Part shown: piece by piece, positions 11,616 through 50,260 of the stretch
Numbering within the stretch: the first letter of the stretch is position 1
How the letters are laid out: each line of letters opens with the position of its first letter
Assembly: GCA_946965045.2 (NCBI GenBank)
Contig: OX337241.1
Span: 2,790,001 to 2,854,000, forward strand
Length of the DNA stretch: 64,000 bases
Direction: 5' to 3'
Source: Epithemia pelagica
Taxonomy: Eukaryota > Protista > Bacillariophyta
The notes under the pieces: generated by a model
The model's input: only the letters and a program-made list of their open reading frames with translations
The model's database searches: none
Told to the model about the DNA's origin: nothing
Translations under genes and position numbers: made by a program

Positions 11616-12573
11616 TCATGCCACACGAGACAAGGCGGAGAAGGAGGCACCACACGACGTCCTAGTCTCCCCCTGTCTGGAACTTGCATCCACCAGACTG
11701 TGAATGGCTTCGTCCAGGACGGCAGTCATAATGTCATGATCGGTCACAATGTGGTCCGTATTCGAAACTGAAGAAGAAGCATCTAGAACGAAGGACTCTG
11801 GCGTCGGCCGTTCCAACGACTCATTGGAAGTATACGGGATCAAGTTACTGAATGAAGAAGGTGTCTTGGCGTTTTTATGGTTGAGGAGCGTTTGAGACAA
11901 GGGCTGCGCCATACTGACCGCATCAGTTGACTTCTGGACGCTGCTCCTACGTCGACGAGGTTTACCGGAATCCGCCGTGCCATTTCGCTTGGCCAAGAGC
12001 TCGCGAAGTTGCGAACCCACCTTTTCGCGTGCCACGGCATCCGAGACTTGAAACCATTCCTTGGTAAATGGATCCTGCACATGATGAACACAAACAGCAT
12101 TCCAATGTGATTAGGACAAGACTTAGAGAAATATTCGAATGGAAATGCCGTACCTGCTTGACAAAGGCTCCTTGACCGTCCCGCACGGCATCGACAATGT
12201 GCATGACTAGAAAGGATTTTTCCGTTTTGGTGGTGGCTTCATAGGCCTCCAGGTTCAAATCACACAAAATGCGGAATCGACGATTGCCCACTGTGACCGT
12301 AAACAAGACGAAACCAAATACAGTAAAGTATGCATGTGCGTGAGAGAACCACTTGTCACCAATTTTCCTAACGACTGTTGGGTGTGTGTGTAAATGGTTC
12401 CTACCATGATTGAACGACGTTTTGCCCCGTCCACAAATCACCGTCCACGGATTGGGTTCAAAGTCAGCCGGTAACAGTCGGGCTTCTGGAACGGGTAAAA
12501 AGGATCGAATTTCTTCTCCCACAAAGCGACTCAAGTCGTGGTTTCGATTGGTCAAGGATCCGCGGTCGACCAT
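11616..12573 (-). CDS. DUF6824-type diatom protein, copy B; exons 12573-12405, 12290-12154, 12074-11616
   Basis: Spliced product reads WTVICGRGKTSFNHVGNRRFRILC..YEATTKTEKSFLV..IVDAV..GAFVKQDPFTKEWFQVSDAVAREKVGSQLRE; canonical GT-AG at both introns. Confidence 0.85.
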
Positions 12574-12821
12574 GATGTTGTTTTGTCCTTCTTGACAGTT
12601 GTTTGCTTGTAATGGCAAATACACAGTCTAACGACTTTTGGGTTCATCCCGGGGGACAACAAACCAACTCCATGCCGTTTTTTATACGTGGTGACAGTAT
12701 CGTGGTGCTTTGGCACAATCATCGTGATCTAGGTGATTGTGACCGGGTTCTTTGGTGCGGAAGAGAGACGGTTCTCGCCTTGCGAGTCGGTGATAAGCCC
12801 CAGAACATGAAATGACATGGC

Positions 12822-13844
12822 TTAAGTATTTAAGAGCGACCGATTGGATAGCCATGCGCGCCTGCCGATCAGATCTTGTGAGATTGATGGTTCGCCCTGT
12901 CCTGTTGTGACTGTCAAACTGGTTGTTGTTGTGCTAGCATGCGACCAAACTGCCAATGGTTTGGAATCCTGAACATGTTCCGTATCCAGATAGTGCAAGG
13001 GCGAAGCCACTGCTTGGCTCGTAGCACGTTGTGGTCGTATATCGCCGCTCGTGTCGTCGTCCAGCAGTTTCCTAGAGGATGACGAAACGGAGGAGGATCG
13101 TTTGCGAGAAGAAGTTTGTTTGGAGAGACTGGTAGTTCCGACATATTGTTGTTGTTGTTGTTGTTGTTGGTTTTTGAGTCGAATATCGCGAAATTGTTGT
13201 CCCAACTTTTCCCGTGCCACTACATCGCTCACTTGGAACCATTCCGTCGTATAGGGATCCTACCAAAAAACAACAACAACACCAACAACAAATATCATGA
13301 GTTGGAACGACGCCTCACTCTAGACGACAACAACAAATCCGACAAGAGACATACCTGTTTGACAAAGGCCCCCTGTCCTTCTTGGACGGCATGCAAAATT
13401 TCCGTCACAATCAGCGACTTTTCCGTCTTGGTACTGGCCCGTTCATAGCGTTCCTGATGCGCTTCACAGAGAATCCGAAAACGGGCTGCTGACTGTGCGT
13501 CGTCATTGTTCGATACCGCGCACGACGAGACAAAAAAAGACACGAGAAAAATACAGTGCAAGGGATGAGGAGAACATGACAAATCATAATTCCAGATGCT
13601 GAGAAATACGGTACCATACACCATGTAGGAGTGAACGCGACACACAGCCGTACTACTAGTACCCACCATGATTGTAAAAGGCCTTGCCCCGTCCACAAAT
13701 GACGGTCCATTCATTGGGTTCAAAGTCGGGAGGTAACAAGCGGGCGCGATCGACGGAGACATGGGCCAATAGGGATTCGTGCACATGAGAAGGAAGATGA
13801 CCACCTTGCGCCGTTTGGCTGGTCAAGGAGCCTCGATCCACCAT
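12822..13844 (-). CDS. DUF6824-type diatom protein, copy A (tandem paralog); 3 exons, exon-2 acceptor uncertain
   Basis: MVDRGSLT start shared with copy B; WTVICGRGKAFYNH / RFRILCEAHQERYERASTKTEKSLIV..GAFVKQ (donor 13354) / DPYTTEWFQVSDVVAREKLGQQFRD (exon 3 from 13259). Confidence 0.8.
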
Positions 13845-17058: not shown

Positions 17059-17209
17059 TCGAGTCCGGGGAAACCAATGGAGGATATTCGGGTCGCCAAT
17101 CGCTTCACCGTTTGGCTTTTGCTACATGCTGCTATCAAAGAGGACGTTTTTCTCACTGCTAATCATACTATACGAAACTGCTGCTACAAGAACAACCCAT
17201 TGGCGTGTT

Positions 17210-17612
17210 GGTTTCTAGGTAGATGTAGGCAGTTCTTGGAGGAAAAAGTCTTGTGTGTGTCATGCGCAAAACAAAGTGTCTGGACCACCAGTATTCCAAA
17301 CACATTGTCAACCTGTATTCCAGACCAGGAAAGGATGGATTGTCGATGTACGAAATGCCAGAGGTGGATTGGCGCAGATCCAAGAAGGAAAAGGGCCCAG
17401 GTAGGTTTGGGTTTCTAGGTAGATGTAGGCAGTTCTTGGAGGAAAAAGTCTTGTGTGTGTCATGCGCAAAACAAAGTGTCTGGACCACCAGTATTCCAAA
17501 CACATTGTCAACCTGTATTCCAGACCAGGAAAGGATGGATTGTCGATGAACGAAATGCCAGAGGTGGATTGGCGCAGATCCAAGAAGGAAAAGGGCCCAG
17601 GTAGGTTTGGGT
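17210..17612. repeat. Tandem duplication with a 200-bp period, two copies
   Basis: 17211 gtttctaggt... recurs at 17411; the only difference seen is 17349 (t) versus 17549 (a). Confidence 0.95.
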
Positions 17613-20019: not shown

Positions 20020-21050
20020 TCATCCAAGCCACCGAAACCTCCAACCATTCATCCCCCATTCAGAGAGCTGCCTCACTGAAGTGGTAGCTCGGAACAACTC
20101 ACTCTTCTGTCGAATGCGACCCTCTTGATCCGTGTTGCTTTGATACGACTTCAAAAGGGCCTGTCGCCGTTCCGAGCCGAATGCAGAATCAACGACAACT
20201 CGCGCGCCTCCTCGATTACGTTCACGGGCATGAATGGAATCTATCTTGTTGTAGGTATCCGAATAGATAGCGAGCGTCGAGTCATGCCAGGATCCAGGCG
20301 CGTTAATATACGACGCCCGGATCCGCCCATCAGGAGAGAACAAGAAGAGGTTTGAAATAAAGTGGTCACACTTCCACCCGTTGTAGAACAGGTTTTGGTG
20401 CTTCGCATTGGCCTCTATAGGAACCTTTAAACCATCCATGGCCCCCCAAACATTTCGTAGCACTGGATACTTGCGTCGTATGGCTTTCTTGAATCGTCTG
20501 ACTTCCTTCTTCGTAGGGAGCTTTACTTCGGCATCTGGATGCCAATGTAGGACCTTGACCAGAATTCTTTGACCAAACCGCAGCCAAACAGACAAGGGGT
20601 TAGCAGTTAGGCCAAAGACCAGTTGGAGCAACATTGTGGATCCACGCGTACGTGTCCAAGCCAATACTAGTGCAAGGCATATTTTCGCATCAATCAACCT
20701 TCGACCTCTCCTCTTCCCTTTCGGACTCAATCAACGCATGGAGGTGCGATTCTTGGCCGATTGAGGGTATGGCGTCCAATTATCAAAATAAGGCGCAAAC
20801 AGATGAAGCAGCTTTTGGAAAGAAGCGTGGTCGAATCCACACAAGGCTATGAGGGACGCATCTTCTCCACTGTTGTAAAGTTTCATAAAAGCGGAGTGCT
20901 TAGGATGGTGGAGAGACCCTCTACCGATTCCACCAGGACGCAAACGACGACGAAGACGCTCTAATTCTTATTGACGGTCATCCTCTTGCTGCCCTCTACG
21001 ATGGAGCAATAAAACCACAAGTCTTCCTCTTCGTCGTTCATGGTTATTAC
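20020..21050 (-). mobile_element. Decayed PIF/Harbinger (DDE_Tnp_4-type) transposase
   Basis: AMDGLK, PGSWHDS, VVDSAF and LSEWGM give the D-D-D-E pattern; N-terminal SLIALCGFDHASF helix motif. In-frame TAA at 20970-20968, frameshift near 20735-20780, and homology lost after EWGM. Confidence 0.85.
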
Positions 21051-34531: not shown

Positions 34532-36933
34532 TTATTTCGTGCAGGGTCCATCCAGAGAACACTGACGACAGGCATTTTCACAAACAAAGGTTTCCCCAGC
34601 ACCTAGGACCCTGCACTCATTTCCGACAAAAACTTGGTTATCGGGACAGTTTCGAACCACGAGTGGGTTACCATTCACGCAGACGACAACCGCGGTACAA
34701 GACGGATTGGCGGGAAGGAACGAAAAAGATCCATCGGGTGGACAACAGGGCTCGGCTGCAATGGGAGGGTTGGTGGGACTCTGAGATGGATTGCTGGTCC
34801 TCGTCGGAGCCGCGGATTGGGAGGGTTGTGAGGATGGAGCCCTTGACGTGGATGGAGCAGACGATGGTTCCATGCTGGGAGCGGCCGATACGGAAGAAGA
34901 GTCACTGGGAACCATGGACGGTTCCACACTGGGAGCGGTGGAGAGACTCGGCCGGGCACTGGGAAACGAACTGGGAGTCTTGGAAGGACGATCCGACGGA
35001 GAGAACGAAGCACTGGGAAATGAACTGGGGGTCTTGGAAGGACGATCCGAAGGAGAGGACGAAGGAGTTTTGGAAGGCTCGGAACTGGGTGCTGGTGAAA
35101 GGGAGGGCGTCGAACTGGGCTCTTGCGATAAGGTAGGCGTCGAACTTGGTGCCTGTGATGGCGTTCTCGAAGGAGCTTTGGAAGGCCTTTGTGAAGGCGT
35201 TGCACTGGGCTCTTGAGACGGATTGTCCGAAGGGCTACCGGATGGAATGCTAGATGGACTAGAAGAAGGACTTGTAGATGGAATATCCGTTGTCACGCCT
35301 GCTCGCAGTGCGTCCACACACTCCAGCGTAGCTCGAGCGTCCGCCAATCCAGCTCCCAGATCATCGCCAAGATTCTCTGCTTCGTCGTACATGCACTTTT
35401 TCAAGTCTGCGTTTGTGGCGTCTGGGTTGATACTTTTGGCCAGAGCAAGTATGCCTGCAATATGAGGACACGCCATACTGGTTCCGGACATTGTTAGATA
35501 GACCTCGGGGTGGAAGCCTGTCGAAAGGACGTTCCTTCCAGGCGCTGCAATATCGATCCAATCTCCTCTGTTGGTAAAATCAGACATTCTCTTATCGAGT
35601 TCCACGGACGCGACCGCGACGACTCGTGCATCTGCTCCGGGGTAATACAGATCTCTCGACCGCCTGTTCCCGGCAGCAAAAACAACCAACACATTTTTGT
35701 CCGTAGCATATTTGATGGCACTCTTCATGATGTCTGGATAGGCTCCTGCAGACGTGTAGCCCCACGAATTGGAACTAATGTGAGCACGGTTGTCGGCTGC
35801 GTAGACCATGGCTTTATCTACCCCTCCGGCACGACTCTTTCCAAACACGACAGTCGTCATGACTTGAACACCAAGATGGTCTTTGGTCCCACCGGCGACA
35901 CCGGCCACTCCCCGGTTATTGTCTGTGGTGGCCGCAATCGTACCAGTACAGTGACTCCCATGGTTATTGCTGCCCACAAGGTCTTTGCCTGAACCGTCAG
36001 CAAAGTTGTACCCATGGCAATATTTTGCACCACAGTTTGGATTCGTCCACAGATTACCTACAATTTAGAAATAATTGACAACATGACAAGCACAAAGTCA
36101 GTTGGGAGAATCTTGCGTCATGTCCATTTCAAAAGATCGACTTGTATCTTACTTTGTGAATCTGGGTGCTCCCGGTCCCATCCAGAGTCTGAGACATGCA
36201 TCACAATGTTGTTTAGGTTTGGCCATGCTCCTTTCGTGAACATATAGTCCCAAGCCTCGTGCAGCTTGATCAAGTTAAAATGATCGTTTTGCTCGTCTAC
36301 TCGAAGGTCATTAGGAAATGCTGCCAATGGTGTCGTCCCATTTCCGGTTAGGAATCGTGCCGAGTTGCGTCGCAGTCGTTGCTGTTTGGACGACAGCACT
36401 TCCTCGCTAACAACCTCCTGTATAATCGTATACTCGGCTTCAGCTGCTTCAAGTGGCGCCCAAGGATTGTAGCTGGAATTCAATTGATTCAGTTGTTCCG
36501 TCAACCGATTACTTTCGAGGCGCCTCAACTGTTCCAGAGCTGCGATGGTAGCCTGACCGGTTTGGGAGAAAGAGCTTGATCCCTTTGTGCAGTTGAACTT
36601 GACCCATCGAGTCAAGCCATAGGCTGAGTGCGCCGCGAGATTTTCTTCGGATGCCACAAACACTTTTTCAAACGAAGTGCAAAGGGGATAGAGATTATCC
36701 AGTACTTCTTGGGCTGCTTGTTCCACAGCACGTAGCTCATCTGCAATAGAATTTATGGAAAATCCTGACACGTTTTTGAGACTCGCAAACTTGACGTTAA
36801 AGTAATCGTCAATGCCGCCTTCTGCCGAGTGTTGCTCCAACAAGCGTCGATCAGGAAAGCGTGATCCATCAGTGCCATGTTCAACAAACAAATAAAGGGC
36901 AACCACAAAAAACCAAGACAGTCTCATTGTCAT
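34532..36933 (-). CDS. Secreted subtilisin-like serine protease (S8) with P/S/T linker and C-terminal CBM14/peritrophin-like domain; intron 36152-36058
   Basis: Signal peptide MTMRLSWFFVVALYLF; catalytic VSDSG, HGSHCTG, FAAGN, SGTSMACPH; spliced HPDSQSNLWTNP; mucin-like S-x-x-P-S repeats; Cys-rich CCPP...CTAVVVCVNG...CPDNQVF...C. Confidence 0.9.
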
Positions 36934-37204
36934 GACAACACGTATGGAAACTACAAGTTGCAACGTCGTAGTTCCTATGATTAGGAAAAATATGAAACCA
37001 TGGGATTGCCCTTTCGGTTCTACAGTTGGTCCTGCGGAAGATTGTGTGTGTTCTATAATTTGTTCTTGTGACAACTACCGAATTTGTGGACCGCCACGCG
37101 TATTCGACTCAGCTTCCTTAAGCGAGTCATTTCAACTAATTGCCTCCATTCTTAGTCCACGTTTGAGTAGTCGTTTAATTTCAAACTGTAGCGCCCTTCG
37201 AGTC

Positions 37205-37455
37205 CCGCATCGTACCCAACAGGTTAAGCAGGGACCGACGGACGAACGATGAGAGACTGATGATGTCGCTCCCAACAAGATGGCAACGACACGTCAGAGT
37301 TGGTTGGGGTCATCAATGACTCTTATGAGTCATACCCCAACCTACGAGAATATGGAGAAAGGATTCCTAAAGGAGTCATAAGTTTATGAGAAGAAAACTC
37401 TTCGGTTGTATCACGGATCTGATCACCCATTGATCATCGTGGAGTTCTCTTTTTG
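37205..37455 (+). repeat. Split direct repeat A1
   Basis: Identical to 45619-45869. Confidence 0.95.
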
Positions 37456-37549
37456 TTTTCTTTTTCTCCCTGTTGACCGTGCCAACCACTCGTTCGTTCG
37501 CTTTGTTCTCTTTTCTGGGTTCTCTTCCTTTGCGTTCCTATTACCCGCA

Positions 37550-39907
37550 ATGTTCGATTGGACGGGGACTTCGGAATCCTCGCCCTCTGTGGGGTCAACA
37601 GGTGAGTCTTTTGTGTCAGTTACCGGGGGGGGTGCCCTACGTTCGGGTTCTCTCTTCGGTATCCTGCGGATGGAAGAGTCCGCTTTTGGAGATTTGTGTC
37701 GGGGCGTCATCGGGTCAGGGCAACGCATTTGTTTGCGTTCGGAGTGTAACATTGCCTCCCATTCGGTCAAAAAAGTCAGTTGGGCCCAATTGGTCGGGGA
37801 TGATTCGCACTGTATCTTCATCCAAGGTTCCAGTGGTGCAGAAGGCGAAGCCGCAACCAGTGTGTTCGGTTCCCCGGTTCTTCCGGGTTCATGTGTTCGT
37901 GATTCCGAATGGGCGGAATTAGAAACAAGTCCTCGAAGTTTGGAAAGCTGGCAAGCTACATTTGCTTCTCTTAAAGATGCCATGCAGAATTCTGGATCTG
38001 ATCAAGTCGACGAGAAGACAGTGGCCGATCTGCTGGAGACCACTAAACACGACGTGAAGTTTGTCTTTACGCCAGCCAGGAAGAAGCATCGGGGCAAGGA
38101 TATCGCTACGAGTACGCCTTCGCAGGATTATGATCAAAAACCCGCTGCCAAGAAACCGATTCCTAAGCCTATTCCTTTTTTCAAGGTGCCCGTCGAATTG
38201 GGCTCTCAGCCTGACAAGGCTATTCGTACCCTTATTCAAGGAGCTTGGCGAGACCTTGTAACCAATGTTTCAACTCTCAAGGCTACCATTGAGATCGAGC
38301 GTTCCAAGTCGCCGACTGAGAATGTGGGGGCGGATGCGTATTTGGATGAAATTGAGTTGAAGACTTCGGTTCTGCGAGAACTTTTGGGAGATCGACCAGC
38401 AGATTTTGGAACGGCTTCAGCTTTCGGATTACTGTCCCAAGTGGTGGAGTCTCTGCGCGATTTGGAGGCATCGATGAACGTGTATAAGGTTCGCGTAGAC
38501 TCGTTGTCGGTTGGTTCGATCTCTACTGCGCTGGAACAGCGAATTCAAGTCCTGGAGGATCAAGCACGGTCGTTCGAATCGCTCATGCAAAAGGCGATCA
38601 AGGAACAACTTGATATCCATTTTACTCGAGGGGATTTTCGCACTCAGTTCATCGAGCCCACGTTGAAGCTGCTTTCTCGATCGTCTCGAGTGTCAACGGA
38701 CCCGGGGGGAAAATGGGAGGATGAACTCACAGGTTTGGCCTCCAGAGTTTCGACGTTGGAATCAGCCCAAAGCAATCAACCGTCCACTGCTTCCGTCAAT
38801 TTCTTGAACCATGGAAGTTCGAACAACTCGTCGGGTCTTTTCCAATGGAATGCACAAGCTCCCTTGTCATCGACCCCAACAACAACAACAGGAAGTGTGG
38901 TGGGGGATCTGCGTCAGGAAATGCTTGCCTTGAAGGAAGAAGTGGCGCGCTTGAAAGCAGATGTAAAGGATTTGCAGGATCAGGCCGAATCGGACGCCAT
39001 TGTCATTGGCTCTATTGTCTTCTCTTCGAAGAAGTTTTGCCAAAGTTGGCTTGTCTTGCATGGGGCCGAAGGAGATCCTCACGTGTTTGTCGATCCTGTA
39101 TCAATGTTGTCAATCTCAACATCGGACGCTACCCAGGACGAAGAACGGGCCGCTAACCAGCGAGCAACAACAGCGAAGGTCAAAGACAAATCGCCGTATC
39201 ATACGGCCTACATCGCGTCCTTTAGCCTGGAACTACCGCCATTGCTGGGCAAGGGAGGAGATTCATCGCTCACAACTAATTCGCGAGCTTTAGCGGGGGT
39301 TCCACGCTTCGTTGATTTCCACCCACCGTCCGGCAGGGAAGGAATTCAACAACGAATCTTGGATTACATTAAAGACGGGAAGAAGACTTTGGAGGAATCG
39401 ATTGGCGACCTTTTCGCGTTTGGGTCGGAACCGGCAAGCGTCGCTCGAGAACTCTTACTTCTTAGTAAGACGTTCTGGGACGAGCTTTGCCATTGGATGA
39501 TTCGCTATCACCGCGAAATCAAAGAAGAAAGCGACGCTACCGAGCACGAGGTCTGGATACTTATATCGCATTGTGTACGTGCGGTATTTAAGAGTCTGCG
39601 TGACGCTCGTGCTCCCGGTCGTGCATCGTCAACCCCCGGTGGAATGCTTTGGGGAACACTTCGAGCCCATCAGGTCATGAAGGATTATCGAGGCCACGAC
39701 TTCAGCGGCCACCCAAAAATTGCACTAATCCTGCATGAACATCTCATTCGTTTTTCGACGCCTCGCTCAAAATTCGATGAGCTCCAATTGCAATTCGACG
39801 AAAAGCTGGAGAAGGTTCAGCGATCAGTGAACCAAGCGGTGGCAGCTGTGAACAAGAAGGGTAGTAACAATAAATCTACAGGCGAATCCAAGAAGCAACA
39901 AGGTTGA
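37550..39907 (+). CDS. Gag-like ORF1 of the YR retrotransposon
   Basis: First ORF after A1; N-terminal C-x9-C-x4-C-x4-H (CRGVIGSGQRICLRSECNIASH); long coiled coils; ATG 37550 within track ORF 37406..39907. Confidence 0.8.
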   Translation: MFDWTGTSESSPSVGSTGESFVSVTGGGALRSGSLFGILRMEESAFGDLCRGVIGSGQRICLRSECNIASHSVKKVSWAQLVGDDSHCIFIQGSSGAEGEAATSVFGSPVLPGSCVRDSEWAELETSPRSLESWQATFASLKDAMQNSGSDQVDEKTVADLLETTKHDVKFVFTPARKKHRGKDIATSTPSQDYDQKPAAKKPIPKPIPFFKVPVELGSQPDKAIRTLIQGAWRDLVTNVSTLKATIEIERSKSPTENVGADAYLDEIELKTSVLRELLGDRPADFGTASAFGLLSQVVESLRDLEASMNVYKVRVDSLSVGSISTALEQRIQVLEDQARSFESLMQKAIKEQLDIHFTRGDFRTQFIEPTLKLLSRSSRVSTDPGGKWEDELTGLASRVSTLESAQSNQPSTASVNFLNHGSSNNSSGLFQWNAQAPLSSTPTTTTGSVVGDLRQEMLALKEEVARLKADVKDLQDQAESDAIVIGSIVFSSKKFCQSWLVLHGAEGDPHVFVDPVSMLSISTSDATQDEERAANQRATTAKVKDKSPYHTAYIASFSLELPPLLGKGGDSSLTTNSRALAGVPRFVDFHPPSGREGIQQRILDYIKDGKKTLEESIGDLFAFGSEPASVARELLLLSKTFWDELCHWMIRYHREIKEESDATEHEVWILISHCVRAVFKSLRDARAPGRASSTPGGMLWGTLRAHQVMKDYRGHDFSGHPKIALILHEHLIRFSTPRSKFDELQLQFDEKLEKVQRSVNQAVAAVNKKGSNNKSTGESKKQQG

Positions 39908-40057
39908 TCTGGACGGGAGAACATTGGCGAGAATGATAACGGTACGAGGGATGAAAGTATATGTGAAGAAAAGACAAGAGAACCATCAACGATTAGTGAT
40001 GATAAGTTAGACTGTGATGCAATTGCTGAAACATCGACACTCTTCCCACTCGGCGTC

Positions 40058-43000
40058 TTGGAGAAAAAGAACATGGGCCTTCCCGTAGGCTATGGATCGT
40101 TGGCGATTGGGTTGGTGTGTTTCTCTGTTCCATTTTGGTTTTGGTCAACATCACTCCTGGGCTCTGTGTCGTGGATAGATGTTTGTCACCCTGTCTCTTG
40201 GCTCGCTTCAGTCCAAGGCTCGACACTACCGTTGGTGATGGAAGAGAAGGATGCAAGTCCTGACAGAAGAAAGAGAAAGTCCGATGGAAAGCTGAAGACT
40301 CCGCCTGTTTTTGCTGAACGTTGGAACGAGGCTGATGTTATCTTGTTCGATGAGTTGTGCCCGGGGCCCTCCCATGATGTATGGAAGTCCGTTAGAGTTC
40401 AGTTTGTTGTATGGTGGAAGAGCAAGTCATGGAGCGGCCCCCCAAAAGAAGAATCAAGGTGGATCGTTTCGAAACTAAGAATGGAGCATGCAACACTAGG
40501 AGGAGTGACCACAAGAGTTGACTGGATCTTTGTAGCTTCTCGCTTCATGCACTCAGATCAGAAGCAAACCATCAGCTTTTTGGATTGGTGGAAAGGATCA
40601 ATGGAAAAGGGATTGAGTTTGACAACGGTTCGTGGCATCATTAAGCCCACGGAGCATGGGAAACCTCGAGCTGTGTCCAAGGTCAAGTCAGAAGATCTGT
40701 TGTGTGACCGCAAAATGAATTGGAAACTGGATAGGGAGAAGGTTCATATCCTCCCAAGTGTATTCTCTCCAACGGGTCTGGTGCAGCGAAAGCTTGTGCC
40801 AAAGGAGTTAGCACTAGCACTGGATTTCCCCTCTCAATTGAGTGCCGGTCGGTCAGACGAGGAACTGTCAGAACTGATTGATAAGACTGGACCTCCATTC
40901 AAGACGCGAGTTCAGGTTGTGCGGCTCATCCGTGACTTCATTGAACAGCAAACCTCTGCGAAATCCAAGAAGAGAGAAAGGCCCGAAAGCTCTCGAACGG
41001 ATTCCAAAGTTGCATCGTCTGATGTTAGTGCACATGGAATGAAGGTAGACGAAGACGAGCGTGTACCTGACGACATGGAGATACTAACCGACAACGCGCT
41101 TCACGAATTGGAAAGAGAAGAAGACCGCAATTTAAAAGCAACAAAATCGGATGACGCCGCTATTCCTCATTATTTGTGGAACGATCGAATACTTGATCGT
41201 TTTGGAATGGTGAACGAAGATGACAGGGCAAGAGGAATTCACGCTCTCGATTGGATAAGACACGGAGCGTTGATATATTGGAAACGTTTAGTTTCAAGAA
41301 GTTTCTGGAGGTGGTGGCGCGATTCGCAATCGTGCCTTTCAACATCAGAAAGACAAACTTCAATCGCATCAGGACTCAGCGCTTTACGTCATTCTGCGCT
41401 AGCTTCATGGTGGGATTGGGATGCAGGGTCGTCCCCCTTTTTCTGGCGGATGCCGGACCCCGATTGGCTCGTTGATATGAGGGATGGGGTAAAACCAATG
41501 TGGATTGGACCCCCACCCAAGTATAGAATACCACAACGACCTAATCCAGATCCGGCCCATCTCGCGTTAGAAAAGAAGAAGATTGGAAAGGTCCGAAAAC
41601 GCGGTTACATTGGTCCTACCGAGGGAATTCGTTCCTTAACGAGTTTCTTTTCAGTACCCAAGGGACCGTCGGACATTAGAATGGTTTATGATGGAACCAA
41701 GAGTGGATTGAACGATTCACTCTTGGCTCCTTGGTTTGGATTGGCTACGGTGGATGCCATGTTAAGAACAGTCTGTGAAGGCACGTGGTCAGGTGACAAC
41801 GACTTTGGTGAAATGTTTCTCAATTTCTGGATTCATCCAGAAATTAGAAGCTATACGGGAGTTGATTTAACTACGCTGTTCCCAGAGGAGCTTGATGCCA
41901 AGGATGGTTCGAAGAAATGTCTTTGGGAGGCTTGGACTCGTTGTGCAATGGGGGTTACTGTGTCCCCATATCAGACCACGCAATGTACTCAACGGGTCAA
42001 GCGGATTGTTTTCGGATGTCGGTTCAACGATGATAATATTTTCCGGTGGACCGATGTTCGCCTCAATTTACCGGGAAACGATGACTATGATCCCTCAAAG
42101 CCTTGGATTTGTAAAGTCAGGGAAGACGGAAAAATAGCTGTGGATGTGCATTCGTACGTCGATGACTTACGAGGTACAGCGCCATCCGAAGAAGAGGCAT
42201 GGCAAGCATCTAGTGCAATGGCCAAAGGTTCAGCATATTTTGGCTTGCAAGACGCAGCACGCAAGCGTAGACCACCAAGTCAGAATCCAGGGGCTTGGGC
42301 TGGCGCAGTGGTAGAGACGACCTCAGAGGCCGTGTTCAAAACAGTATCCCAAGAACGATGGGACAAGACGAAAAAACATGTCGCAACTCTGGCCGACTGG
42401 GCTGGAAAGGACGATCCAATCAACCGGAAGGAGCTGGAACGAATCCGAGGTTTTCTGGTGTACGTGTCGCTCACCTTCAAAGCCCTGGTTCCGTATTTGA
42501 AGGGTATACACTTAACCCTTGAAAGTTGGCGACCCGACCGCGATTCCGAGGGTTGGAGAGTCGGAAAGAAGCAAAGACAAGAATTGGTGCAAGCATCGAG
42601 CGACGCATCAATGAGAAAAGAAGCTCCGATAGAAGTGGAGCAAGTTCCAAGATTTAAAGATGACATTCGCGCGATCAAGGAACTCACCGACTTCGAGAAA
42701 CCACCTAAGCTCTTAGCCAGGCCAAGAAAGGGATCTAAGGCTGTGATTGTGTTCGCTGATGCATCGGGAGAAGGATTTGGATCTTCACTCTGGATTTACG
42801 GGTCTGATACGGTGGACACTGAACATGGTCTGTGGACCAGACAGTATGGGTCCCGCTCATCGAATTTTCGGGAACTTTACAACCTGATCCTTCGGTTGGA
42901 AGCCTTGGTACATGGTAACCAGCTTGAACATGGGGCGGAAGTTTTTATGTTCACTGACAACGCAACGTCAGAGTCAGCCTTTTACCGAGGCACGTCGTCG

Positions 43001-43693
43001 TCATACCTTTTGTTTAGTTTGGTTCTTCGCGCCCGAAAGATGGAGATGGATGGACGAATATTTTTGAGGGTGGTCTGGGTAGCTGGAACGCGAATGATCG
43101 CTCAGGGAACAGATGGTCTGTCCCGAGGCGACTTGATGACGGGCGTCATGGCCGGGAGCTCGATGTTGTTTCACGTACCGCTAAATCGTCATTGCGAAGA
43201 AAGACAACCAGGGGTGGTTCCTTGGCTAAAGAGCAATTGTGATGATCGAATCTGGGTTGACACCACACCAACTGATTGGTTTGACGGTATCTTCAATAAA
43301 GGAAACTTCGTCTGGACTCCGCCACCTTGTATCGCTGATGTTGCAGTGGATCAACTGTGTGATTCAGTGCACATACGTCCCAGAAATAGCCACATATTCG
43401 TTTGCCCTGCCCTGATGACATACTTGTGGCGAAAGAAGCTTGGAAAAGTCGCTGACTTTGTGTTTAAGATTCCCGCTGGCTGCGGAATTTGGTCTCAGTC
43501 TCAACATGAACCTTTGATTGTTGCTTTCGTGTTACCTCATCTCTTTCGCAGGCCTTGGCAAGTTCGAAGAGCAAAAGGGTTATTGGATGACATCGAAAAC
43601 CACATGCGTGAAATGTGGTCATCCAGTGGCACCCCTGATGGGTCTTGTTTGCGCCAACTATGGGCATTCAAGGGGTACAAGCCGAGTGTGTAA
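40058..43693 (+). CDS. Pol ORF2: C5-methyltransferase-like domain + reverse transcriptase + RNase H + C-terminal PPP (MT-like) region
   Basis: RT FFSVPKG..IRMVYDGT, NDFGEMFLNF, SYVDDL; RNase H FADASG, RELYNL, FTDNAT, DGLSR; C-terminal FVWTPPP. The first in-frame ATG is at 40073. Confidence 0.92.
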   Translation: MEKKNMGLPVGYGSLAIGLVCFSVPFWFWSTSLLGSVSWIDVCHPVSWLASVQGSTLPLVMEEKDASPDRRKRKSDGKLKTPPVFAERWNEADVILFDELCPGPSHDVWKSVRVQFVVWWKSKSWSGPPKEESRWIVSKLRMEHATLGGVTTRVDWIFVASRFMHSDQKQTISFLDWWKGSMEKGLSLTTVRGIIKPTEHGKPRAVSKVKSEDLLCDRKMNWKLDREKVHILPSVFSPTGLVQRKLVPKELALALDFPSQLSAGRSDEELSELIDKTGPPFKTRVQVVRLIRDFIEQQTSAKSKKRERPESSRTDSKVASSDVSAHGMKVDEDERVPDDMEILTDNALHELEREEDRNLKATKSDDAAIPHYLWNDRILDRFGMVNEDDRARGIHALDWIRHGALIYWKRLVSRSFWRWWRDSQSCLSTSERQTSIASGLSALRHSALASWWDWDAGSSPFFWRMPDPDWLVDMRDGVKPMWIGPPPKYRIPQRPNPDPAHLALEKKKIGKVRKRGYIGPTEGIRSLTSFFSVPKGPSDIRMVYDGTKSGLNDSLLAPWFGLATVDAMLRTVCEGTWSGDNDFGEMFLNFWIHPEIRSYTGVDLTTLFPEELDAKDGSKKCLWEAWTRCAMGVTVSPYQTTQCTQRVKRIVFGCRFNDDNIFRWTDVRLNLPGNDDYDPSKPWICKVREDGKIAVDVHSYVDDLRGTAPSEEEAWQASSAMAKGSAYFGLQDAARKRRPPSQNPGAWAGAVVETTSEAVFKTVSQERWDKTKKHVATLADWAGKDDPINRKELERIRGFLVYVSLTFKALVPYLKGIHLTLESWRPDRDSEGWRVGKKQRQELVQASSDASMRKEAPIEVEQVPRFKDDIRAIKELTDFEKPPKLLARPRKGSKAVIVFADASGEGFGSSLWIYGSDTVDTEHGLWTRQYGSRSSNFRELYNLILRLEALVHGNQLEHGAEVFMFTDNATSESAFYRGTSSSYLLFSLVLRARKMEMDGRIFLRVVWVAGTRMIAQGTDGLSRGDLMTGVMAGSSMLFHVPLNRHCEERQPGVVPWLKSNCDDRIWVDTTPTDWFDGIFNKGNFVWTPPPCIADVAVDQLCDSVHIRPRNSHIFVCPALMTYLWRKKLGKVADFVFKIPAGCGIWSQSQHEPLIVAFVLPHLFRRPWQVRRAKGLLDDIENHMREMWSSSGTPDGSCLRQLWAFKGYKPSV

Positions 43694-45095
43694 GAGTGCA
43701 TGGCATGCAAATTGTTATTGCCAGAGTCAGGATGATAGATTCCCAGTATTGGAGCCGGGTGACTTGGACGACGCTTTGTTAGATGGTGAAGGACATGCCG
43801 AGATTGAAGACGACCCAGGCCGGTTTAAAGAGGCACGAGATGGAGACCATTTCTTGTGTCCTTTTCAGTGTGACTCGTGTTCGTTCTTCAATGTGCAGGG
43901 GCGATTTGAGCGAGACAACTCAGAACCCGATCGCCTGTTGATGGTCTGTATTCGACGAGCGAATTTAGACGCGTTCTGGTCGAGAGAGCGATCGACCGTG
44001 GATAAAAATCTACGTGAACTGAAGGGTCTCCAATCGCTAGGAGAGACGATCGGTCTCCATCGACCCCTCCCGAATCGCGGGCCTTTTCCAATCGGCGATA
44101 GCAATGGTCTTGGCGCTGCCTGTTTGATGCTCATGAAAACTTTGAAAGAGGGTAAGAATGCTAAGCACATTCAATATGAAACGGCCCGAAAAGTGAGATC
44201 AACCATCAGCAATTTCATGCATACGCTTCCTGGAGGAACTGGTTGGTCAACGATGGGATCCGGAGACCGCTCGTCGTTGGTATTCACTGCCAGCCCTACC
44301 AATTCATATTGGTACAAGCGCTTTCTCAGTGGATGTCATCGAAGAATGGGTGATGTATGGATCCCGGATAGAGCTGTGACGCTCGAAGAGATTCATGTTG
44401 GTTTGGACATCTTGGAAAAAGAATGGAAGGGTGTTCCAAGAGGCCAAAGAAAGTTGGAGGTCGCCCTGTCAGGAGCACTGGTTGTTATTGGGTTTTGTGC
44501 AGCCTTGCGCGGTGAAGAAATCCCACAGGTTGACGTCGGTCTCATCCGCAAATATTGGTTGGAAGGGATAACTTGCTCAAGAGTCGCTCACGTTCCTTTG
44601 GCAATGGCTGGTCGATTCAAACAGACCAATGGTGCATTTAAAATATACATCCAGCCGTTGGCGGAAACAACGAAGTCAGGCATCGGGATCAGACTATGGA
44701 TCGAGCGAGCAATCAGAGAGTTGAACGCGAGAAAGGTGGAATCTGGACCGATGTTTCGTCGAGTGACAAAAACAGGAAAGGTCAACCGAGCGATGGTAGG
44801 AGACTTGGACATATTGATGATTGCTCTCTGGAAGAGGATCCAACATCATCGTCCGGATATCATTCCTGATACTGTTAAGGTAGAGGAAGAATACAGTGCC
44901 AGACGATCCTTTCGCCGAGGAGCAACGACGGAAGCCCAAAATAAGAAGATACCGAAAGAGGTGATCGAAGCAAACAATCGATGGCGAAAGCACTTGAGAA
45001 ACAAGGGCGTGCTCCCTGGGATGAGCATGTTGGAAAGATATTCGGATGCAAAGGCGTCTGTCGAATCTTTGGTGCGCTTCTCAGAGTGCTTGTAA
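43587..45095 (+). CDS. Tyrosine recombinase ORF3 with N-terminal Cys/His zinc-finger-like region; overlaps the 3' end of pol
   Basis: ALRGEEIP (catalytic R), ARRSFRRGAT, NRWR, MLERYS (Y); ATG 43587 within track ORF 43518..45095. Confidence 0.9.
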   Translation: MTSKTTCVKCGHPVAPLMGLVCANYGHSRGTSRVCKSAWHANCYCQSQDDRFPVLEPGDLDDALLDGEGHAEIEDDPGRFKEARDGDHFLCPFQCDSCSFFNVQGRFERDNSEPDRLLMVCIRRANLDAFWSRERSTVDKNLRELKGLQSLGETIGLHRPLPNRGPFPIGDSNGLGAACLMLMKTLKEGKNAKHIQYETARKVRSTISNFMHTLPGGTGWSTMGSGDRSSLVFTASPTNSYWYKRFLSGCHRRMGDVWIPDRAVTLEEIHVGLDILEKEWKGVPRGQRKLEVALSGALVVIGFCAALRGEEIPQVDVGLIRKYWLEGITCSRVAHVPLAMAGRFKQTNGAFKIYIQPLAETTKSGIGIRLWIERAIRELNARKVESGPMFRRVTKTGKVNRAMVGDLDILMIALWKRIQHHRPDIIPDTVKVEEEYSARRSFRRGATTEAQNKKIPKEVIEANNRWRKHLRNKGVLPGMSMLERYSDAKASVESLVRFSECL

Positions 45096-45208
45096 TCGAG
45101 TCAAGAGGAATCGAACACGGGATCGGAGAAGGCAAGGATGGACACACAAGCGGCAAGAGCTGCGAAATGGAAATGAAGAATGTTGGTGTGGGATTCATTT
45201 ACCGAAAT

Positions 45209-45620
45209 GGGGAATTGTTCTCGGTTGAACTCTTGCGAGTAAAGCCTAGATCGCTTGTCGTTGCCAGCATGCCTGATCGATCTTAATGGATACTCAACAG
45301 ACGTGGACCAGGGCTTGGCAGCCTAATGGGAAGCGGCGCAGCACTGGTGAAGATATTTCGGAGTGCTGCGGCTCAGCAATGGGTCTGATACTGGGTTTGT
45401 CTGTTGGGGGACGTCACACTAGCGCGTAACGGACGGAAGTTTACGGGATCCGAGTCCCGTGAGCTTTTGGCGCGAACCACGATTCACGCCCGCCTTTTTG
45501 GGAAAGGATGGGTGGGGGGCCTTCCCCCCCAGAGTATGGTAATATATAGTATTATGTTATTGTGGAAGTGTGGTATCGTTGGGACGTCTCATCCGGAAGG
45601 AAGAGTGAGGATCAAGTACC
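45209..45620 (+). repeat. Split direct repeat B1
   Basis: 412 bp; matches 45885-46296 with one mismatch. Confidence 0.95.
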
Positions 45621-45869
45621 GCATCGTACCCAACAGGTTAAGCAGGGACCGACGGACGAACGATGAGAGACTGATGATGTCGCTCCCAACAAGATGGCAA
45701 CGACACGTCAGAGTTGGTTGGGGTCATCAATGACTCTTATGAGTCATACCCCAACCTACGAGAATATGGAGAAAGGATTCCTAAAGGAGTCATAAGTTTA
45801 TGAGAAGAAAACTCTTCGGTTGTATCACGGATCTGATCACCCATTGATCATCGTGGAGTTCTCTTTTTG
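45619..45869 (+). repeat. Split direct repeat A2
   Basis: Identical to A1; shares a 2-nt CC overlap with the end of B1. Confidence 0.95.
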
Positions 45870-45884
45870 CCCACCCACCCGCCC

Positions 45885-46296
45885 GGGGAATTGTTCTCGG
45901 TTGAACTCTTGCGAGTAAAGCCTAGATCGCTTGTCGTTGCCAGCATGCCTGATCGATCTTAATGGATACTCAACAGACGTGGACCAGGGCTTGGCAGCCT
46001 AATGGGAAGCGGCGCAGCACTGGTGAAGATATTTCGGAGTGCTGCGGCTCAGCAATGGGTCTGATACTGGGTTTGTCTGTTGGGGGACGTCACACTAGCG
46101 CGTAACGGACGGAAGTTTACGGGATCCGAGTCCCGTGAGCTTTTGGCGCGAACCACGATTCACGCCCGCCTTTTTGGGAAAGGATGGGTGGGGGGCCTTC
46201 CCCCCCAGAGTATGGTAATATATAGTATTATGTTATTGTGGAAGTGTGGTATCGGTGGGACGTCTCATCCGGAAGGAAGAGTGAGGATCAAGTACC
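45885..46296 (+). repeat. Split direct repeat B2
   Basis: Copy of B1; forms the right end of the element. Confidence 0.95.
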
Positions 46297-47343: not shown

Positions 47344-50260
47344 TCAGGTTCGTCTACCAAGAACTCGAAGGTATCGCATACCCATGCCGCCCGCCTTCAT
47401 GGTCGTTGGAACTTGTGTGGGACGTTGGCTGGGTTGTTGACTGGGAGTGGTACTGGGTTGCAGCGTGGAGGGTCGTGTACTGGGACGGCTGCTGGGACTT
47501 GACAATGGTGGGGACGACCGACTGGGTCGGGCACTGGGAATACTGCTGGGTGCCGTACTGGGAACCAAACTCGGCAATTGGCTGGGATGGGAACTGGGAG
47601 CGACACTGGGGACGGGAGACGGAGCAACACTCTGACTGGGCACACTGGTTGGAATGACACTGGGACGGGTGCTGGGTGACACGGTGGGAGTGGCCGTCGG
47701 ATTGGAACTGGGTCGTGTGGAAGGCGATACGGTCGGACTGGAACTGGGTTGCCAGCTGGGATACAAACTTGGTCGAGTCGAGGTGGTCGGTGTGACACTG
47801 GGCCGCGACGTGGGAGACGTACTGGGTTGCAGCGAATCAGTGGGTCTGGCAGTGGGCAGTTGCGAGGGTGACCCGGACGGTTGGGACGTGGGTGTCTGCG
47901 ACGGCGACGCGGACGGAGGCGTACTGACCGTGGGGGCCGGCGTGAAAAATTCGGTTTGAATACATTGCAAAAAGGCGGGTGGATTGATCAATCCATGGCC
48001 CAGTCCTTGCGCCGAGGGATGAGTGAGGTTTGTGGCCGTCCGGTTCATGCAAGAGACCAAGTCGGTATTGGTTGCATTGGGATACAAGGTCTTGCCCAGT
48101 CCCAACATGGCCGAGACATGAGGACAGGCCATGCTGGTTCCCGACGCGGGCAAGTAGGGTGTGTCGGAATTCCACAAGCCCGTGGAATAAATGTCCACGC
48201 CCGGTGCGGCAATGTCGACCCAGGGTCCTGCATTGGAAAACCACGCCTTTTTCTGGTCATTGGTCACGGCGCCCACGGCAACCACATTGTGTGCGGCACT
48301 TGGAAAATACTGGTCCTTGGTATTCTTGTTGCCCGCCGCAAAGACCACAACCATGCCACGTGCATGAACGGCATAGTGGACGGCCGATTTCATGAGTGTG
48401 GGATAATTGCCTTGACTGGAATAATGCCAGGAATTGGAACTAATATGGGCCCCATTGTCGGCCGCATAGACCATGGAGGCTTCAAAATTACCCGGTCGGG
48501 ATGTGTTGCCAAAAATGACCGCCGTCATGATGGACACTCCGGGATACTCTCGAGTCCCGCCGGCCAACCCGGGGACACCGACGTCATTGTCGGTAGTGGC
48601 GGCCAAAATGCCCGTGACATGAGTCCCATGCACATTGGGACCAAGCAAATTCCCACCGGTTTGATCGCCAAAGTTGTAGCCATGACAATCCCCCTTGTAT
48701 TCGTTCTTGTCTTGATCCTTGGGCTTGTCACCCTCCTCGAGGTCACATTTTTCGTCGGGATTGACCCATTGATTGACTGTGGAAATTCATGGTAGTATAG
48801 CGAAAACGAGTACCAACAAAAAAGAGACAAAGAAAGCAAGCAAGCAAGCAAGCAACGAGACAAGCAACGAGACAAGCAAGTCAGCAAGACCCCAACGACC
48901 CATGTCCAACAAGAAAGCATGTGGTTAGAACGAGGAACCAAACACGCGCACTTCACAAACACACCAATACACACACACACACTTGGCCAGGACGTACCTC
49001 CCAAATCTTCATGGTTCCCCCAATCAGCTCCCGAATCGGCAACATGAATGACAACCTTTTGGGCATTGGGCCAGGCATTGTGAGTTTCCAGGATTTGCCA
49101 CGCCTGGTCCATTTGCAAGAGTCGTGTATTGCCGTACAATTTGGGCGAATACTTGGGGTCATTGGGATATGCATTGTTGAGGTGACGACGACGTGTCGTC
49201 GTGGTCGTTTGGTTGCGACGGTCCTCCTGGTTGTGGGGGAGCAACGTGTCCCTGGTGCTGCTGTGTGGATCGTCCTTCTCTTGTGGTTGTGGATGTTGGG
49301 ACCGTCGTGGGTGTCGTTCCTTTTGCCTTCTCCTCTTGTGGTGATGGTGGTTGGGCGGCATGGGTCCGCGGTACATGGCATCAATAATTTCCAATCGTGG
49401 TTCGACCAATTCAATGTGGACATCTCCCAGACCTCCCTGGTGGAGATGTCGTCGTTGTCGTTGTCGTCGTCTGGGTCCGCCGTCATGGTCTGGTTCTTGT
49501 TGTTGCTCTTGCTCGAGTTGTTGTTCTTCCAACCGCATGAGATACAACAAGGCGTCGTGGACGCCTTGTCCCTTTCTCGTATTCGTATTGGAGGAAAAAG
49601 AAGAAGAAGCAGAAGAAGAAGCAGTTTCGTCCTCCATAGTGTCCAACGTGCTGGTGGTGGCCATGGTGGCGGGTTCCGCACTCCTGCCCTCGTCTCCACC
49701 TCCTCCTCCTCCTCCTTGTTCTATGCCAGGACAGGTGTATTCAAACCATTGGGGAAATTGATACTGGGCATGCAAGGCGGCCACTCGGGGATTGTGATGC
49801 GGTGTGGGAATGGCCGGTCGCACCTCGGTACACCAGGGTTGTAACAACTCTTGGACGAATTGGCCAGCGACTGCCACACAACACTAACGGTTGTGGGCTC
49901 GTTCAGTGTGTGGTCGTTCTCTGTGTGGTCATGGTTCGGTTGGAGTGCGGCCACAATGGCGGCCGATGTGTTGGCAAATTTGATTTGCAAGACAGGTTCC
50001 ACATGACCCTGCTCGACTCGTTGTTGCAACCATCGACGAGAGGGAAAGACGGTTCGTTGGCGTCGTGGTGATTGTTTGGTTGTGGAGAATGGCGGTGTTG
50101 TGGTTGGGGCAGCAACCGCAATAAGAAACAATGGTGGTTGCCAGAATCCGACCAACAACAAGACGATCGACACACCCAGAACCACCCAGTGCCTTGTTGT
50201 TGTCGTCGTTGTCGTCGTCGTTGACAGGCTTCGTTTTCGTTTTCTACTGGTTGTTGTCAT
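47344..50260 (-). pseudogene. Second subtilisin-like protease gene (tandem paralog), frameshifted in the prodomain; intron 48997-48777
   Basis: VADSG, spliced EDLGVNQWVNPDEKC, HGTHVTG, FAAGN, SGTSMACPH and P/S/T repeats. The N-terminal frame (RRWLQQ..LQIKFA) and the next frame (VQELLQPWCT..WFEYTC) both match paralog 1 but are out of frame near 49880, with no plausible intron. Confidence 0.8.

Follow-up and report, generated by a model that had tools for sequence, protein, structure and literature searches.

We analyzed a window of 64,000 nucleotides from the diatom Epithemia pelagica (positions 2,790,001 to 2,854,000 of the forward strand of contig OX337241.1, assembly GCA_946965045.2); all coordinates below are those of this window. 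It contains an intact tyrosine recombinase (YR) retrotransposon of 9,090 bp with split (A-B-A-B) repeats, and the start of the element's Pol protein carries a domain resembling C5-cytosine methyltransferases (C5 enzymes). An earlier note on this DNA had described a degenerate enzyme of this kind, and the peptides that it quoted are present at 40067-40940, in a 1261-codon frame (39908-43693) that also holds reverse transcriptase (RT) and RNase H motifs. Our results indicate that the domain is a real, clade-wide pseudo-methyltransferase, built like a C5 enzyme but not a functional member of the class.

The repeats of the element follow the order A1, coding part, B1, A2, B2, and the coding part comprises three open reading frames (ORFs) of 841 (37382-39907), 1261, and 525 codons (43518-45095), corresponding to gag, RT/RNase H, and YR. 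Together with an insertion that left no target-site duplication, these are the features of a split-repeat YR element. The regions that we take to be RT, RNase H, and YR were labeled from their familiar motifs; none of the three proteins, ORF1 included, matched a Pfam family significantly. The empty insertion site was detected in contigs from three of four DNA sequencing runs, all of one study and the best of them possibly the source of the window itself: position 37204 was joined to 46295, skipping 9,090 bases, with two letters shared. This joint fixes the ends of the element within two bases and shows that no target sequence was duplicated. The joined outer ends equal the internal B1/A2 junction, as would be expected if the recombinase had inserted a circle. 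The element is recently inserted and intact, and this copy is polymorphic. In addition, the target site and the B/A junction of the element are identical at seven of nine bases (37198-37206 and 45612-45620), suggesting that the recombinase chooses its targets by short homology.

Table 1. Features of the retrotransposon in window coordinates (pLDDT, predicted local distance difference test; pTM, predicted template modeling score).
Feature	Coordinates	Strand	Basis and remarks
Whole YR retrotransposon	37205..46294 (ends +/-2)	+	Empty-site joint; three open frames; no target-site duplication
Repeat A1	37205..37455	+	Matches 45612-45869: 258 nt, 2 mismatches, both within the first 9 nt at the junction
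Gag-like ORF1	37550..39907 (stop to stop 37382-39907; probable ATG 37550)	+	"Gag" by position only; metagenome loci have relatives in the corresponding position
Likely readthrough site, single TGA between in-frame gag and pol	39905..39907	+	Same layout in relatives
Predicted pseudo-C5-cytosine-methyltransferase domain	40052..40951	+	Model pLDDT 88, pTM 0.87; fold searches; family alignments
Motif I equivalent lacking FxGxG (strand beta1 followed by P-x-W)	40100..40138	+	P in 65/76 and W in 69/77 occupied rows
Motif IV region lacking PC, with a strand, a conserved Pro, a short helix, and a shortened loop	40334..40384	+	Model, alignments
Motif VII-VIII equivalent, W...H..LGGVT, no QxRxR	40460..40543	+	His 81/81
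Motif IX-X equivalent lacking GN, with R-x-L...E.....D-x-P and P-x-K	40787..40903	+	R, E, D, P each 81/81; K 73/80
Conserved unnamed region ahead of RT	41120..41617	+	Family alignments
Presumed RT	41618..42517 (approximate bounds)	+	YVDD at 42155-42166
Presumed RNase H	42740..43177 (approximate bounds)	+	D-E-D-D pattern
Probable degenerate Dam-like (N6-adenine) methyltransferase fold, Pol C terminus	43160..43690	+	Model pLDDT 89; W-x-P-P-P at 43313-43327
Presumed YR ORF	43518..45095	+	Overlaps the pol end; relatives conserve LRGEE, RSxRRG, NRW, and a C-terminal Y
Repeat B1	45209..45620	+	412 nt, 1 mismatch vs B2
Repeat A2	45619..45869	+	Repeat comparison
Repeat B2	45885..46296	+	Repeat comparison; 1/412 differs from B1

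Predicted fold and catalytic motifs of the Pol N-terminal domain

The conserved start of the domain, GVLEKK, lies upstream of the first ATG (40073) in this copy. We modeled the domain with AlphaFold2 using an alignment of 91 rows, from which most short fragments and Pol proteins longer than about 760 residues were left out; all five models had similar scores (pLDDT 86-88; best model in Table 1). Foldseek, which the earlier note had proposed as a check together with AlphaFold, gave 47 matches in the PDB at E <= 0.001; all 41 rows shown were C5 enzymes (best E, 5e-7). With VIA (48,161 chains), ranks 1 to 19 were likewise all C5 enzymes at Z 9-17, followed by a next match at Z 6.6. The top match was M.HhaI (10mh; Z 16.8, root-mean-square deviation (rmsd) 3.9, 257 residues aligned), and Dnmt2 scored Z 15.3 (rmsd 3.9, 247 aligned). 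Viral C5 enzymes also headed the list in a fold search of BFVD. The fold alignment covered model residues 12-304, indicating retention of the small lobe that separates motif VIII from motif IX, at an identity to C5 enzymes of 7-13%. The order and spacing of C5 elements that had been read from the peptides were thus borne out by structure prediction and three fold searches, and the domain is predicted to have a C5-cytosine methyltransferase fold.

We also compared the family with bacterial C5 enzymes at the sequence level. The reference consisted of 26 diverse enzymes, chosen because the Dcm relatives in viral and genome collections resembled one another too closely for this purpose. When both alignments were trimmed, hhalign placed motifs VII-X in register over 141 columns, including the register of motifs VIII, IX, and X given in the earlier note (pairwise P 3e-4, probability 39%; reversed control, P 0.8). 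At this level the case for homology is weak. The untrimmed runs aligned only motifs IX-X, with a probability of 8-16%, and the family profile matched the 26 enzymes marginally (E 0.005 at best when these 26 sequences were searched). HMMER matches to the Pfam DNA_methylase family (PF00145) numbered 0/4, 0/13 for the close relatives, and 0/145 for the distant relatives (of 150 listed), and PDB sequence searches with the single domain and two profiles yielded no methyltransferase. A lack of significant profile matches, which the earlier note had named as an outcome that would speak against its proposal, was therefore found in part: HMMER matched nothing significantly, and the profile-profile match is weak.

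Together, the fold and profile comparisons support descent of the domain from a C5-cytosine methyltransferase and its fusion in Pol. The donor DNMT subfamily is not nameable from these scores; DNMT3 ranked below M.HhaI and Dnmt2 in VIA (Z 11.7-12.0), and fold scores do not give descent. The domain had been described as fused N-terminally to RT. It does share the Pol frame, but is separated from RT by about 55 variable residues and about 165 conserved ones. The stretch of about 165 conserved residues is tryptophan-rich and has no Pfam match.

The bacterial alignment contains invariant residues in motifs I, IV, VI, VII, VIII, IX, and X. Motifs VII and IX have conserved counterparts in the family, whereas the catalytic ones do not: FxGxG, PC, ENV, QxRxR, and GN are all lost. 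FxGxGG occurred in 0/81 full-length Pol relatives. PC was found in the motif IV window of 2/91 rows, and GxPC matches elsewhere fell outside the motif IV columns. ENV, which had already been reported missing from this copy, was present in the motif VI window of none of the 91 rows (5/81 matched elsewhere in the N-terminal region). The columns aligned to QxRxR contained T, G/A, and F/D. From the motif IV Asp to motif VII, the median distance was 40 residues (34-51; 81/91 rows), compared with 71.5 (68-83) in the 26 enzymes; with about 30 residues fewer, the catalytic loop and parts of two helices must be shortened or gone.

Conversely, the family has invariants of its own (residue numbers are those of the model). 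His150, Arg250, Glu256, Asp262, and Pro286 were each conserved in 81/81 proteins, and GG(V)T and Lys288 nearly so, with Thr/Ser and Lys/Arg each in 80/81 at the Thr157 and Lys288 positions. The motif IX pattern R-x-L...E...P is retained (R and E 81/81, P 76/81), and the helix of motif X persists without GN.

Two of the proposed motif alignments did not survive this comparison. Motif I had been placed out of register: strand beta1 corresponds to residues 21-27 (LAIGLVC, 40100-40120), about 11 residues downstream, and M.HaeIII residue 1 pairs with model residue 21, while the quoted G-rich stretch is a coil that varies among relatives. The Cys of "DELC", read as the motif IV Cys, is incidental and peculiar to this copy; it occurred in 1/13 close relatives (alignment A2) and was not among the six commonest residues of its column in the 81 Pol proteins. 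Since the catalytic and S-adenosylmethionine (SAM)-binding motifs are gone family-wide and the loop is about 30 residues short, the domain is very likely dead, a stronger wording than the "catalytically altered" of the earlier note. In the C5 mechanism, the Glu of ENV and the two Arg of QxRxR hold the flipped cytosine. Because none of the three has a conserved counterpart here, the suggested base flipping is also unlikely.

Methylation of the element's own DNA had been suggested as well, and the base composition lends it no support: the observed/expected CpG ratio of the element was 0.98, against 0.88 and 0.93 in its flanks, which is weak evidence because active SymbioDIRS-Dnmt3 elements are also described as free of CG depletion (PMC5890265). 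We considered and rejected a low ratio inside the domain (0.63) as a signal, since 7/139 windows of the same size were as low. In relatives, the domain had 0.78 and the RT 0.64, against a domain-specific low.

Conservation in the clade and organization of Gag-Pol

A search with the N-terminal region found seven proteins among 3,041 candidates and a whole-Pol profile found 19 among 7,992, whereas a 13-row domain profile, searched against 1.84 billion representatives, matched 294 proteins at E <= 0.001. Many of the 150 listed run into the same linker and RT. Of 7,997 candidates scored with the RT-RNase H part, 1,469 protein clusters matched. A precomputed Pfam domain is absent from all 120 relatives listed from these clusters; their RT motif is YVDD in 79/120 and YIDD in 16/120. 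Of the 120 Pol proteins, 81 extend 300 residues or more upstream of the conserved linker, and the N-terminal domain was kept in all 81. The same was true of all 31 metagenome loci with at least 1,100 nt upstream of the linker, among 79 loci found with a full-Pol alignment. The order gag, domain, RT, YR holds wherever the metagenome contigs reach far enough. No active C5 partner was detected in the 79 loci or the 120 Pol proteins with a profile of the 26 bacterial enzymes, which could miss very diverged ones.

The domain is under purifying selection. Among 31 frames containing both the domain and RT, 17 pairs had an RT identity above 70%. Domain dN/dS (the ratio of nonsynonymous to synonymous divergence) was measurable in 7/17 pairs, at 0.13-0.28 with two of the seven values duplicates, compared with 0.45-0.91 in the adjacent variable linker and 0.02 in RT. 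These ratios are rough, since dS is near saturation (1.6-2.6); another 7/17 pairs were saturated and 3/17 were identical or nearly so.

A tree of the domain and one of the Pol core (RT, RNase H, and C terminus) had 39/46 well-supported splits in common, and the distances were correlated (Mantel rho 0.65; best of 999 permutations, 0.13). The simplest reading would be a single old capture of a C5 methyltransferase that was dead before the sampled clade radiated. Four supported splits conflict between the trees, and the evolutionary rate of the domain is about 2.5 times that of the core; both points count against the reading favored below. Its median identity across the clade is 20%, vs 47% for RT.

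Some contigs provided further observations on the elements. Many diverged subfamilies (56-71% identity) lie on megabase contigs, several of which are of equal length (P0004-P0021 and cluster members), which suggests a varied element set in one or a few related genomes. A head-to-tail tandem of the whole element with a period of about 8.1 kb was detected at L225:357-16550, and a doubled repeat unit lies between YR and gag at L185:4864-6226 and L190:6826-8003; these arrangements may represent tandem insertions, circles, or assembly paths. Contigs that were circularly permuted or tandem were not accepted as evidence that circles exist, since such contigs can arise when A-B-A-B repeats are assembled.

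In this copy, gag and pol are separated by a single stop codon. Across loci L159-L235, the two genes were in frame across one stop, mostly TGA, in 19/26 de-duplicated loci, compared with about one expected by chance, and the excess held even when only the frame was left to chance (P 4e-5). TGA-CTA, a known readthrough context, occurred at the junction in four loci, and no Met precedes the domain in 5 of 22 in-frame rows. The single-stop junction is missing in 7/26 loci, which do not conform. To judge from this layout, and from the position of GVLEKK ahead of the first ATG in this copy, Pol is likely made by programmed stop readthrough from gag. We found no description of in-frame gag-pol readthrough in YR elements in the open-access literature.

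The region after RNase H was present in 115/120 listed relatives, and the model of the last 177 Pol residues resembles a five-strand DAM fold. Its best VIA matches were two adenine methyltransferases, Escherichia coli Dam at Z 7.4 (102 residues aligned, rmsd 4.6) and CAPAM at Z 7.2 (115 residues aligned, rmsd 3.1), both below the tool's safe level, and Foldseek gave no match at E <= 0.001. The Asn-Pro-Pro motif is degenerate, with Asn at its column in 6/69 relatives and [DNS]PP[YFW] in 1/69, and 0/69 had a Pfam Dam match. From the predicted structure, the Pol C terminus is probably a degenerate Dam-like fold. It may thus represent a second dead methyltransferase, in which case RT-RNase H would be flanked by two pseudo-methyltransferases.

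Other features of the window were also recorded. The recombinase ORF starts with a Cys/His-rich stretch (43587-43900) that may bind zinc. Subtilase genes lie on either side of the insertion (34535-36064 and 47347-48786, both on the minus strand). Farther away, we noted a DDE_Tnp_4 transposase fragment (20023-20730, minus strand, E 6e-13), presumably Harbinger-type; two adjoining DUF6824 genes (11965-12627 and 13298-13822, both minus) with an 87-nt repeat common to both, a family whose presence is consistent with a diatom host; and a near-perfect 200-bp tandem duplication (17205-17604).

Possible roles of the domain

What might a dead C5 fold do in Pol? The reading that we favor, with about even confidence, is that it serves as a non-catalytic nucleic acid-binding module within Gag-Pol. 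The retained two-lobed scaffold would bind nucleic acid without flipping or methylating a base, and would keep hold of the RNA or cDNA of the element while reverse transcription and the formation of circles take place. If Pol is a Gag-Pol readthrough product, the domain would sit at the junction, where long terminal repeat (LTR) elements carry their protease. In the model for DIRS-1, YR elements must hold single-stranded cDNA, restore its ends, and form a double-stranded circle (PMC7192593). A two-lobed DNA-binding fold that is tied to RT and retained by every member long enough to be examined would fit such a need.

Several points weigh against this assignment. The net charge is positive in 71/81 proteins (median +7), hardly above that of active bacterial enzymes (+5). 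The catalytic loop, which is lost here, is a DNA contact in active C5 enzymes. The invariant residues sit in scaffold motifs and point to no ligand. Nucleic acid binding is proposed from the predicted fold, and the geometry of the pocket is deduced from the alignment.

Alternatively, the domain could be a protein partner. DNMT3L is a C5 fold without catalytic motifs that acts in the host as a regulator of an active paralogue, and the domain here might similarly dock on a host DNMT, as a decoy or recruiter, or organize the Gag-Pol particle. Its faster evolution than RT is as expected in host conflict, and diatoms are described as silencing young transposons via DNMT5a (PMC9998398). We nevertheless consider such a role unlikely: the dN/dS values give no sign of positive selection, the domain is retained throughout a very diverse clade, as would be expected of a core function in replication more than of one tied to a particular host, and the bacterial C5 profile, which very diverged enzymes could escape, revealed no active partner in the 79 loci or 120 Pol proteins.

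The invariant His, Asp, Thr/Ser, and Lys stand where active C5 enzymes have different residues, most of them small, and they could form a new active site on the old fold, for instance that of a Gag-Pol protease or a cDNA-end-processing enzyme. However, these residues belong to motifs VIII-X, which are packed as scaffold in C5 enzymes, so that a buried structural pair explains them, and no protease appeared among the fold-search rows. The location at the Gag-Pol junction would suit a protease, and YR retrotransposons are described as having no aspartic protease (PMC3783388). On balance, we judge a new enzyme quite improbable. In its boldest form, a Pfam-invisible YR clade would make a Gag-Pol whose RT-RNase H part is held on either side by a dead methyltransferase fold, the C5 fold having become a His-Asp-Thr-Lys enzyme, possibly a Gag-Pol protease or cDNA-end processor; we rate this combination no higher.

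The main idea of the earlier note, a non-canonical methyltransferase or base-flipping protein marking its own cDNA, can draw on the retention of the whole C5 fold and on related architectures that bear DNMTs with conserved key residues (SymbioDIRS-Dnmt3, PMC5890265). It now appears very improbable, as the nucleophilic Cys, ENV, RxR, the SAM-binding glycines, and GN are all missing, the loop is shortened, and no element-wide CpG loss is seen. A decaying relic or spacer without function, which the low clade-wide identity might suggest, is largely refuted and barely credible given the presence of the domain in every sufficiently long protein and locus, its invariant residues, and a dN/dS far below that of the neighboring linker.

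Comparison with known systems

The preferred reading, a selected but non-catalytic C5 fold in Gag-Pol, can be set beside several known systems. C5 methyltransferases (M.HhaI, M.HaeIII, DNMT2, DNMT1/3/5; PF00145) share the predicted fold, the order of elements, and the register of motifs VII-X with the domain, and differ from it in having the five lost motifs and a longer segment between motifs IV and VII. DNMT3L is, like the domain, a dead C5 fold, whereas the latter belongs to the polyprotein of a retroelement, and the loci and proteins searched yielded no active partner for it.

A close architecture is that of SymbioDIRS-Dnmt3 of Symbiodinium, which is described as having A-coding-B-A-B repeats, a C5 domain in the RT ORF, a separate YR ORF, congruent domain and RT trees, purifying selection, and an RT poorly detected by Pfam, all as here (PMC5890265). 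Its DNMT is a recognizable Dnmt3 with conserved key residues (PMC5890265), unlike the Pfam-invisible domain of the present clade. Ngaro-like and PAT-like YR elements likewise have gag, RT/RNase H, and YR, near-identical A1...B1-A2-B2 repeats, and no target duplication, and an N-terminal C5 fold does not figure in their descriptions in the available portions of PMC3783388 and PMC6681497. The in-frame, single-stop gag-pol junction also sets our element apart from them. More broadly, a dead N-terminal C5 fold in such elements was not found described in the open-access literature (Repbase and subscription journals were outside this scope), nor is it mentioned in the available portions of PMC3783388, PMC6681497, PMC3145265, and PMC9998398.

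PAT elements carry a methyltransferase (MT). A Dam-like MT is described for DIRS, not Ngaro, in the accessible sections of PMC3783388 and PMC6681497, and its position in Pol after RNase H fits that of the probable degenerate one here. EpiLTRs/DAM-DIRS provide a precedent for adenine and cytosine methyltransferase domains in one retroelement, and the five-strand DAM fold in that paper resembles our C-terminal model (bioRxiv 10.64898/2026.05.21.726589). As described there, EpiLTRs are LTR elements with a chromodomain, and DAMs borne by transposable elements keep Asn-Pro-Pro (bioRxiv 10.64898/2026.05.21.726589). In contrast, the present element is a YR element with split repeats whose two methyltransferase domains both look dead, and its proteins have no Pfam chromodomain match.

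The clade is large, as judged from the clusters matching the RT-RNase H part, and free of Pfam domains among the 120 listed relatives, so standard annotation misses both the elements and their domains. The intact, polymorphic copy makes a domain-deletion test in a retrotransposition reporter feasible. MT domains of DIRS-order elements are usually read as serving self-methylation (PMC5890265; bioRxiv 10.64898/2026.05.21.726589), although their role is stated to be unknown in PMC6681497. Here a whole clade has kept a C5 fold under selection although the chemistry is lost, and probably also a dead Dam-like fold, which suggests that MT domains can be retained for a non-catalytic job.

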